From NCBI RefSeq assembly GCF_054482525.1, contig NZ_CM137006.1: a stretch of 64,000 nucleotides of DNA; one strand, 5' to 3'. Under the pieces are notes generated by a model. The model saw only the letters and a list, made by a program, of their open reading frames with translations, was not told the DNA's origin and searched no databases. The position numbers and the translations under genes are program-made. This document shows positions 62,440 through 63,094 of the stretch, in pieces; the stretch's first letter is position 1, and each line of letters begins with the position of its first letter.

Positions 62440-62706
62440 ATGGACATTAACAACAAAGCCCGCATTCATTGGGCATGCCGCCGTGGTATGCGCGAACTCG
62501 ATATTTCAATCATGCCGTTTTTCGAACATGAGTACGACAGCTTAAGCGATGACGAAAAACGCATCTTTATTCGTCTGCTGGAATGTGACGATCCGGACCT
62601 GTTTAACTGGCTGATGAATCACGGTAAACCAGCCGATGCAGAACTGGAAATGATGGTCCGACTCATCCAGACACGGAACCGGGAACGTGGTCCTGTGGCA
62701 ATCTGA
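62440..62706 (+). CDS. sdhE: FAD assembly factor SdhE (YgfY/CptB), 88 aa
   Basis: Conserved RGMRELD motif. Confidence 0.85.
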
Positions 62707-63094
62707 TTTGCGCGTCTCCTGGCGCGCACAGTGGCTTTCCTTGCTGATCCACGGGCTGGTTGCCGCTGTTATTTTACTCATGCCCTGGCCGCTCAGTTAC
62801 ACCCCGTTATGGATGGTGTTACTTTCGCTGGTGGTGTTTGATTGCGTTCGCAGCCAGCGACGCATTAATGCTCGCCAGGGGGAAATTCGCCTGTTGATGG
62901 ACGGGCGTTTGCGTTGGCAAGGGCAGGAGTGGAGCATCGTCAAAGCGCCGTGGATGATCAAGAGCGGCATGATGCTGCGTTTACGTTCTGATAGCGGTAA
63001 ACGGCAACATTTATGGCTGGCAGCCGACAGCATGGACGAAGCCGAATGGCGGGATTTACGGCGGATTTTGTTGCAACAAGAGACGCAAAGATAA
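62687..63094 (+). CDS. ygfX: Inner membrane protein YgfX (CptA), 135 aa
   Basis: GTG start overlapping sdhE 3' end by 20 nt; two TM helices. Confidence 0.8.

Follow-up and report, generated by a model that had tools for sequence, protein, structure and literature searches.

The overlapping sdhE-ygfX gene pair of Escherichia coli: start codon, age of the overlap and a predicted membrane partner for SdhE

Where two genes on the same strand overlap, one can ask whether the downstream start codon is real, whether the overlap matters for expression of the second gene, and how the two proteins relate to each other. These questions arise for sdhE and ygfX, a gene pair in a 64,000-nucleotide stretch of contig NZ_CM137006.1 (assembly GCF_054482525.1; the whole stretch is referred to here as the window). 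An original prediction, made from the sequence alone, had described a gene for the flavin adenine dinucleotide (FAD) assembly factor SdhE that overlaps by 20 nt the GTG start of YgfX, a protein with two transmembrane (TM) helices, and had noted that the arrangement is reported as the toxin-antitoxin-like pair CptA/CptB. Our comparative analysis places the start of ygfX at the GTG at position 62687 and indicates that the overlap is real, old and kept by selection. We are also fairly confident in the broader explanation as a whole, in which a GTG start within a stretch read in two frames would couple translation of ygfX to that of sdhE, and YgfX would be a membrane partner of SdhE.

The GTG start of ygfX and the two-frame overlap

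The argument turns on three features:

62440-62706, + strand: sdhE (ygfY/cptB), FAD assembly factor; ATG start, 88 amino acids, TGA stop at 62704-62706, protein ending ...GPVAI (open reading frame map, profiles, annotation)
62687-63094, + strand: ygfX (cptA), inner-membrane protein; GTG start, 135 amino acids, TAA stop, protein ending ...QQETQR (open reading frame map, profiles, annotation)
62687-62706, + strand: the overlap, 20 nt read in two frames

In the open reading frame (ORF) map, ygfX is read in the +1 frame of sdhE, and its GTG straddles two SdhE codons (CGT GGT), taking two bases from the end of Arg83 and one from the start of Gly84. The overlap codes for SdhE Arg83 (last two bases)-Gly-Pro-Val-Ala-Ile-stop in one frame and for YgfX fMet(GTG)-Val-Leu-Trp-Gln-Ser-Asp (first two bases of Asp) in the other.

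The locus is the ordinary E. coli sdhE-ygfX operon, which is already known and annotated. SdhE matches Pfam Sdh5 (PF03937) over residues 7-79 (5e-26, 90.8 bits against a cut-off of 27), the NCBIfam equivalog NF008130 over residues 1-88 (1e-59, 198 bits against a cut-off of 120), and the E. coli YgfY/SdhE structures 1x6i and 6c12, the latter an SdhA-SdhE complex, over residues 1-88 (E 8e-59). Its RGxxE motif, described in PMC8621075, reads R-G-M-R-E at residues 15-19, and these amino acids are unchanged across the 78 operons compared below. SdhE promotes covalent flavinylation of SdhA and FrdA, as is known for the identical K-12 protein (PMC5042078; PMC8621075). YgfX matches Pfam Cpta_toxin (PF07254; 1e-49, 168.5 bits against a cut-off of 27.3) over the full length of the family, its residues 2-131 aligning to profile positions 1-132 of 133. 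The gene identities, lengths, GTG start and 20-nt overlap of the original prediction turned out to be exact to the base in the ORF map and profiles, and the comparison with the K-12 annotation that it had suggested gave a matching geometry: in MG1655, sdhE (b2897, 3040804-3041070) and ygfX (b2896, 3040416-3040823) also overlap by 20 nt. Coordinates, starts, lengths, overlap and the neighbours ygfZ and fldB-xerD correspond one to one, and with SdhE 100% and YgfX 98.5% identical we found no difference of substance from K-12. The window is chromosomal DNA of another E. coli strain; a 901-nt query covering the locus is 100% identical to E. coli strain SCU-102 and 95-99% identical to most strains, and the RefSeq PGAP annotation of the pair in a 100%-identical strain is the same. 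The discovery value is therefore small, as the pair, the GTG start and the overlap all stand in the K-12 annotation; what we add is a quantitative case for dual-frame selection and for the GTG, an estimate of how old the overlap is together with the ribosome-binding sites found where it has been lost, and a structural reading of YgfX.

For the comparison we used a near set of 80 loci, one genome per species and almost all from Enterobacteriaceae, which together with two reference E. coli records gives 82 loci, and a distant set of 12 loci whose YgfX relatives are 28-59% identical. Two near-set loci (L046 and L051) had broken sdhE matches and were left out of the overlap count, leaving 80 that could be parsed, and codon-level statistics were computed on 78 distinct Enterobacteriaceae operon sequences. 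One record, L074 (CACSKA010000005.1), is titled 'Chryseobacterium sp. 18061' and carries a typical Enterobacteriaceae sdhE-ygfX locus with a YgfX 75% identical to that of E. coli; this is probably a case of mislabelling or contamination. The gene order holds throughout, with ygfX directly 3' of sdhE on the same strand in the window, in all 80 parsable near-set loci and in 11 of the 12 distant ones. A GTG stands at the homologous position in 82/82 near-set loci, and the overlap is 20 nt in 80/80, well beyond what chance would produce. At the codon level, every base of ygfX codons 1-6 (GTG GTC CTG TGG CAA TCT) is invariant in 78/78 operons, as are all 20 positions of the overlap. Upstream of it, the third positions of sdhE vary in 74 of 75 degenerate codons, typically with about 1 bit of entropy; within it, they vary in none of six (Fisher exact test, ~2e-8). 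Each sdhE wobble base in the overlap is a second codon position of ygfX, and each ygfX wobble base is a first codon position of sdhE. Judged from the sequences compared, this invariance is the signature of purifying selection acting on both frames simultaneously.

The start cannot lie further upstream in the window, because the GTG is the first ATG, GTG or TTG after an in-frame TGA stop at 62651-62653, 36 nt upstream. The same holds in most genera of the near and distant sets, where a stop in the ygfX frame lies 15-36 nt before the GTG without an intervening start codon. Upstream ATG or TTG codons at -42, -51 or -66 occur in 16 near-set loci and were rejected as candidate starts, since they are limited to some of the sampled genera (Citrobacter, Kluyvera, Pluralibacter and others).

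A downstream start would make the annotation wrong and the overlap meaningless. Two such codons are in frame in the window, a TTG at 62708 (Leu8, one base past the sdhE stop) and an ATG at 62780 (Met32), and it could be argued for them that the GTG has merely a weak Shine-Dalgarno (SD)-like match and that no direct experimental mapping of the ygfX start was found in the material on N-terminomics and translation initiation sites (TIS) that we searched. The comparative data speak against both. The Leu8 codon is TTG in a single one of the 78 operons (CTG in 17, TTA in 28, CTC in 7, CTT in 18 and CTA in 7) with both CTG and TTA occurring among Escherichia. Met32 is ATG in only 61 of 78, and initiation there would remove the first strand and the first predicted membrane helix of the structure described below. 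Pairing with the anti-SD sequence is worse at the TTG (-2.2 kcal/mol) and the ATG (+1.5 kcal/mol) than at the GTG, and ygfX codons 2-7 are wobble-invariant in both frames. Furthermore, YgfX residues 2-8 are kept in relatives that have no overlap, namely the distant loci L083 (VVLWRAELRVSW) and L089 (MWQIQLRISH); a motif xxWQxxLRxS is common to 42 representatives of the YgfX family, and the Pfam model itself begins at residue 2. Because these residues persist in non-overlapping loci and the motif is family-wide, the YgfX N-terminus appears to be constrained in its own right. We consider a downstream start very improbable. The original prediction had named one outcome that would speak against it, a downstream ATG with no overlap, and comparative genomics finds the overlapping GTG instead. 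The comparative case is strong that this overlap of two same-strand genes, with its non-ATG start and weak ribosome-binding site, is genuine and no annotation artefact.

Age of the overlap and probable translational coupling

Beyond the Enterobacteriaceae, the overlap is exactly 20 nt in 8 of the 12 distant loci, with the start codon lying within SdhE 'CGT GGN' (Arg-Gly). These eight include L088, in which YgfX is only about 28% identical, and L091 (254-328), in which SdhE Arg83 is replaced by His; because its CAT codon gives an ATG, the position of the ygfX start and the 20-nt overlap are preserved while the SdhE residue changes. In L087 the homologous site reads CGC GGG, and an earlier GTG, 6 nt further upstream, is used, giving a 26-nt overlap. 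Two loci have no overlap: L083, with a 1-nt gap and an 85-residue SdhE that lacks the RGPxxx tail, and L089, with a 30-nt gap and an ATG start for ygfX. L093 has ygfX without an adjacent sdhE. The SdhE tail lies beyond the end of the Pfam Sdh5 match (residue 79), and the chain crystallised in 6b58_B stops at residue 84; the last residues of SdhE look like a passenger of the overlap. Taken together, the distant set offers evidence for an ancient overlap, with an SD site present where it has been lost.

L093 (1419-1944) lies on a 1.5-Mb chromosome (CP152425.1), where the ygfX homologue directly follows ygfZ and lacks a neighbouring sdhE. In L093 as well as in L088 (1305-2712), the next gene, on the convergent strand, encodes a FAD_binding_2/Succ_DH_flav_C flavoprotein (NadB/SdhA/FrdA-like), and this neighbour may be a further link between YgfX and that family of flavoproteins.

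What might the overlap do? At the E. coli ygfX GTG, a GGAA at -12 to -9 pairs with the anti-SD sequence at -4.2 kcal/mol in a duplex that contains an internal loop, a strength also reached at 21% of arbitrary operon positions. At the distant overlapped starts, a small sample, pairing is mostly between 0 and -2.7 kcal/mol. The two non-overlapping loci have well-spaced SD sites, AAGGAAG in one (-5.6 kcal/mol) and GAGGG in the other (-6.1 kcal/mol). This pattern fits what translational coupling predicts, without being proof of it. As the SD site of the GTG is weak at best and lies inside the upstream frame, ygfX is probably translated mostly by ribosomes that are already translating sdhE. Two routes can be envisaged: ribosomes that terminate 17 nt downstream of the GTG could reinitiate at it, or the passage of ribosomes along sdhE could keep the ygfX start site unfolded. 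In either case the output of YgfX would be tied to that of SdhE. The original prediction had stated that the overlap implies translational coupling; the distribution of SD strength agrees with that claim, and coupling itself stays at the level of what we infer.

An overlap could also be real and mechanistically neutral, with free 30S subunits initiating ygfX independently at the GTG and the overlap simply resulting from genome compaction or from SdhE having been extended C-terminally across the ygfX start. The conserved wobble positions at the GGAA of E. coli and the invariance of the CGG codon 79 would suit such a site, and the SdhE tail looks dispensable, as expected of a passenger extension (the SdhE of L083 has 85 residues and no RGPxxx, Sdh5 ends at 79, and 6b58_B ends at 84). 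It is harder to reconcile with the distant set, where most overlapped loci have no SD site and a good SD site has appeared in each of the two loci from which the overlap was lost, and where the exact 20 nt is kept down to 28% YgfX identity, which is difficult to explain without a selective advantage. We regard a neutral overlap as doubtful, although it is the strongest competitor to coupling.

Codon 79 of sdhE deserves separate description. It is a rare Arg codon (CGG), within codons 78-80 (62672-62677), that is invariant in the 78 operons, whereas the other Arg codons of sdhE have a wobble entropy of 1.1-1.5 bits. It falls within a conserved stretch, ACACGGAA, that lies 10-16 nt before the ygfX GTG; one possible role for this stretch is that of a weak SD-like element, another that of the 5' arm of a start-codon hairpin. 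Two hairpins were considered near the junction:

62672-62697, + strand: possible mRNA hairpin that includes the ygfX GUG; weak (-10.8 kcal/mol, z = -1.0)
62709-62728, + strand: G+C-rich 8-bp hairpin UGCGCGUC-UCCU-GGCGCGCA, inside ygfX codons 8-14 and starting 3 nt after the sdhE stop

The second has a folding energy of -14.4 kcal/mol (z = -3.4), and 0/200 shuffles were as stable; across genera its inner 5 bp alone are kept, and these are fixed by the R-V-S-W-R codons.

Several points weigh against coupled translation from the GTG and the role that we assign to YgfX. The case for coupling draws on only 11 distant loci, and one overlapped locus among them, L086, does have an AAGGA, though at too great a distance upstream. 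Folding of the junction revealed no significant RNA structure (z = -0.6 for a 120-nt fold and z = -1.0 for the local hairpin), and pair counts over 55 sequences gave no usable covariation at the GUG hairpin, because the partner bases are locked by dual coding. The ygfX gene is absent from the searchable part of the N-terminomics/TIS (TRAINSPOTTER) supplement of PMC13245402 and from the INRI-seq supplements, and no direct experimental read-out of its start was found there. Finally, one group reported toxicity of E. coli YgfX and its binding to FtsZ and MreB (Masuda 2012, as cited in PMC8621075), a report to which we return below.

The +1 frame of ygfX also brings to mind a programmed +1 frameshift near the invariant rare CGG codon, which would yield an SdhE-YgfX fusion of ~217 amino acids. 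Besides the invariance of codon 79 and its surrounding bases, it could draw on fused proteins of 207 to 217 amino acids present in metagenome protein sets. These fusions are singletons, however, whose junctions lie at differing positions of the overlap, the pattern that occasional 1-nt deletions or faulty assembly would leave. A slippery or prfB-like motif is absent, many genera have a stop in the ygfX frame only 15-24 nt before the GTG, so that a shift would have hardly any space in which to occur, and at the start itself a GTG or ATG is always kept. A programmed frameshift is therefore extremely improbable, and coupled initiation at the GTG remains the reading that we prefer. The fusion proteins (P0003, P0004, P0006, P0007, P0009 and P0013, 207-217 amino acids, from metagenome and Logan assemblies) belong nearly all to single-member clusters and have junctions at ERG|LWQS, GPV|QSD or PVAI|DLR, or upstream of the overlap. 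Any 1-nt deletion within the overlap produces an in-frame fusion of sdhE and ygfX, and we rejected the database fusions as biological evidence because they are singleton 1-nt deletions at different sites.

YgfX as a predicted membrane partner of SdhE and the toxin-antitoxin label

To gain insight into YgfX itself, an AlphaFold2 model was built on a 42-sequence alignment (mean predicted local distance difference test score, pLDDT, 94.4; predicted template modelling score, pTM, 0.76). The model divides the protein into three parts:

62690-62710, + strand: YgfX residues 2-8 (VLWQSDL), predicted strand 1 of a pleckstrin homology (PH)-like domain (AlphaFold2; DSSP strand 2-8, pLDDT 94)
62720-62872, + strand: predicted helical hairpin of YgfX, helices 12-31 and 36-62 (AlphaFold2, pLDDT > 90; hydrophobic sequence)
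62879-63088, + strand: C-terminal part of the predicted PH-like domain, six strands (65-112) and helix 118-134 (AlphaFold2)

Its strands are at residues 2-8, 65-70, 75-77, 80-84, 89-91, 94-101 and 106-112, followed by the helix at 118-134. The two long helices that follow the N-terminal strand are hydrophobic, and we read them as two TM helices, in line with the two-TM protein of the original prediction. With moderate confidence, the model suggests that YgfX is a PH-like beta-domain of seven strands capped by a C-terminal helix, which is split after strand 1 by the helical hairpin. Its sequence matched no Pfam PH or bacterial PH (bPH) family, even at E <= 10. Membrane-anchored bPH domain proteins include YdbS and YdbT. 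Compared with proteins of this type, strand 1 of YgfX precedes the helical hairpin, so that the domain is split. In terms of the model, the overlap encodes a predicted structural element of YgfX, namely strand 1.

Is the pair then a toxin-antitoxin (TA) module? The original prediction had called its function still debated, and the literature bears this out, with the E. coli report on one side and PMC3985639 and PMC8621075 on the other. As a genuine type IV TA system, CptA (YgfX) would block polymerisation of FtsZ and MreB, CptB (SdhE) would counteract it, and the overlap would keep the toxin below the antitoxin. In keeping with this, the Pfam family is named Cpta_toxin, Masuda et al. (2012), as cited in PMC8621075 and PMC8132199, reported toxicity and lemon-shaped E. 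coli cells, and a CptBA-like system has been reported in Acinetobacter (PMC8132199). An arrangement in which the downstream gene is coupled and weaker would also suit a low toxin output. The phenotype was not reproduced by the Fineran group, though an interaction was seen (PMC3985639), and in Shewanella there was neither rescue of toxicity nor binding to FtsZ or MreB (PMC8621075). In addition, SdhE has an independent housekeeping role.

The genomic distribution points the same way. The 901-nt locus query is found in 5425/5426 complete E. coli genomes at a median of one place each, and a 91-nt query across the junction is found in 5425/5426 exactly once each. The synteny ygfZ / sdhE-ygfX / fldB / xerD holds from E. 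coli to relatives at 30-50% identity. The plasmid collection PLSDB gave matches in 12 of 72,556 records, mostly ones of 0.7-5.4 Mb, and the two matches among 50,697 phage records are chromosomal fragments. Four of the PLSDB matches (H11-H13 and H18; 4.8-5.4 Mb) are chromosomes filed as plasmids. Neither protein matches PADLOC at E <= 0.01, this being a library of defence systems and not a complete TA library. An exhaustive search showed the YgfX family to be small, at 135 representative clusters; for SdhE, conservation across eukaryotes and the alpha-, beta- and gamma-proteobacteria is stated in PMC5042078. The pair does not show the accessory, mobile or patchy distribution typical of TA loci; it is core, single-copy and syntenic, and essentially absent from real plasmids and phages.

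Because the locus is core, syntenic and non-mobile and the literature conflicts, we doubt the TA label: the genomic evidence sides with a housekeeping operon and leaves the label poorly supported. A true type IV module is, in our estimate, unlikely, and these genomic arguments add to the view that 'CptA/CptB' is no typical TA module. Considered together with published interaction data, YgfX would be a membrane-anchored partner of SdhE and no true toxin, and the model suggests that it is better viewed as a membrane-anchored, PH-like partner of this flavinylation factor.

Comparison with characterized systems helps to place the pair. The type IV TA system CbtA/CbeA (YeeV/YeeU) resembles it in the reported binding of a small protein to FtsZ and MreB and in an upstream partner gene reported to counteract that protein without binding of the toxin. 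CbtA/CbeA systems are found in cryptic prophages and occur in several copies. By contrast, sdhE-ygfX is core, syntenic and non-mobile, and its 'antitoxin' has a well-established function in enzyme assembly. The sdhE-ygfX pair of Serratia sp. ATCC 39006 has a like gene order and is co-transcribed, and it gave no TA phenotype (McNeil et al. 2012, 2013; PMC5042078); a link to prodigiosin and to FlhDC/RsmA regulation belongs to Serratia only. In Shewanella oneidensis, ygfY and ygfX are adjacent and co-transcribed, with a YgfX 34.8% similar to that of E. coli (PMC8621075), and they are separated by a 37-bp gap, in contrast to the overlap here. The Shewanella pair showed no toxicity, no interaction of YgfX with YgfY or with FtsZ/MreB was detected, and it failed all the TA criteria applied (PMC8621075).

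A bolder proposal can be put forward tentatively, as a possibility that we think less likely than not. Selection would have maintained the exact 20-nt overlap as a device of ancient gamma-proteobacterial origin, the YgfX start being drawn from Arg-Gly codons in a tail that SdhE could otherwise do without. Synthesis of YgfX would be confined to ribosomes that have just completed SdhE, which would fix a low ratio of YgfX to SdhE, and YgfX, as a split PH-like membrane receptor rather than a toxin, would dock SdhE at the membrane beside its clients SdhA and FrdA.

Surroundings of the operon

Three further features flank the pair:

62198-62439, no strand assigned: divergent intergenic region between ygfZ (- strand, 61217-62197) and sdhE (ORF map, annotation)
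62430-62436, + strand: SD-like CAGGAAG 5' of the sdhE ATG (sequence; anti-SD pairing -4.3 kcal/mol, ending 4-5 nt before the ATG)
63098-63127, no strand assigned: hairpin in the 39-nt gap between the convergent genes ygfX and fldB (z = -2.9 on the + strand and -3.2 on the - strand)

The promoter of sdhE-ygfX presumably lies in the divergent region, where a simple scan found no sigma-70 consensus promoter. The ATG start of sdhE has experimental support in PMC13245402, as a row of its supplementary table carries the evidence labels Ribo-RET and INRI for the annotated ATG and has MDINNKAR in its N-terminal peptide field. Downstream of ygfX, the hairpin at 63098-63127 looks like a terminator of fldB, because its T-run is on the - strand only; an intrinsic terminator of ygfX's own was not evident. 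Two 'terminator-like' scan matches were rejected, as they lie inside ygfX and occur at chance frequency.

A scan of Rfam at gathering thresholds found no RNA family at the locus. The only matches in the window are 6S RNA (ssrS; 47458-47641, - strand, 139.8 bits) and SIB RNA (46659-46809, - strand, 138.4 bits), the latter with the Rfam type field 'Gene; antitoxin'; both lie ~15 kb from sdhE-ygfX.

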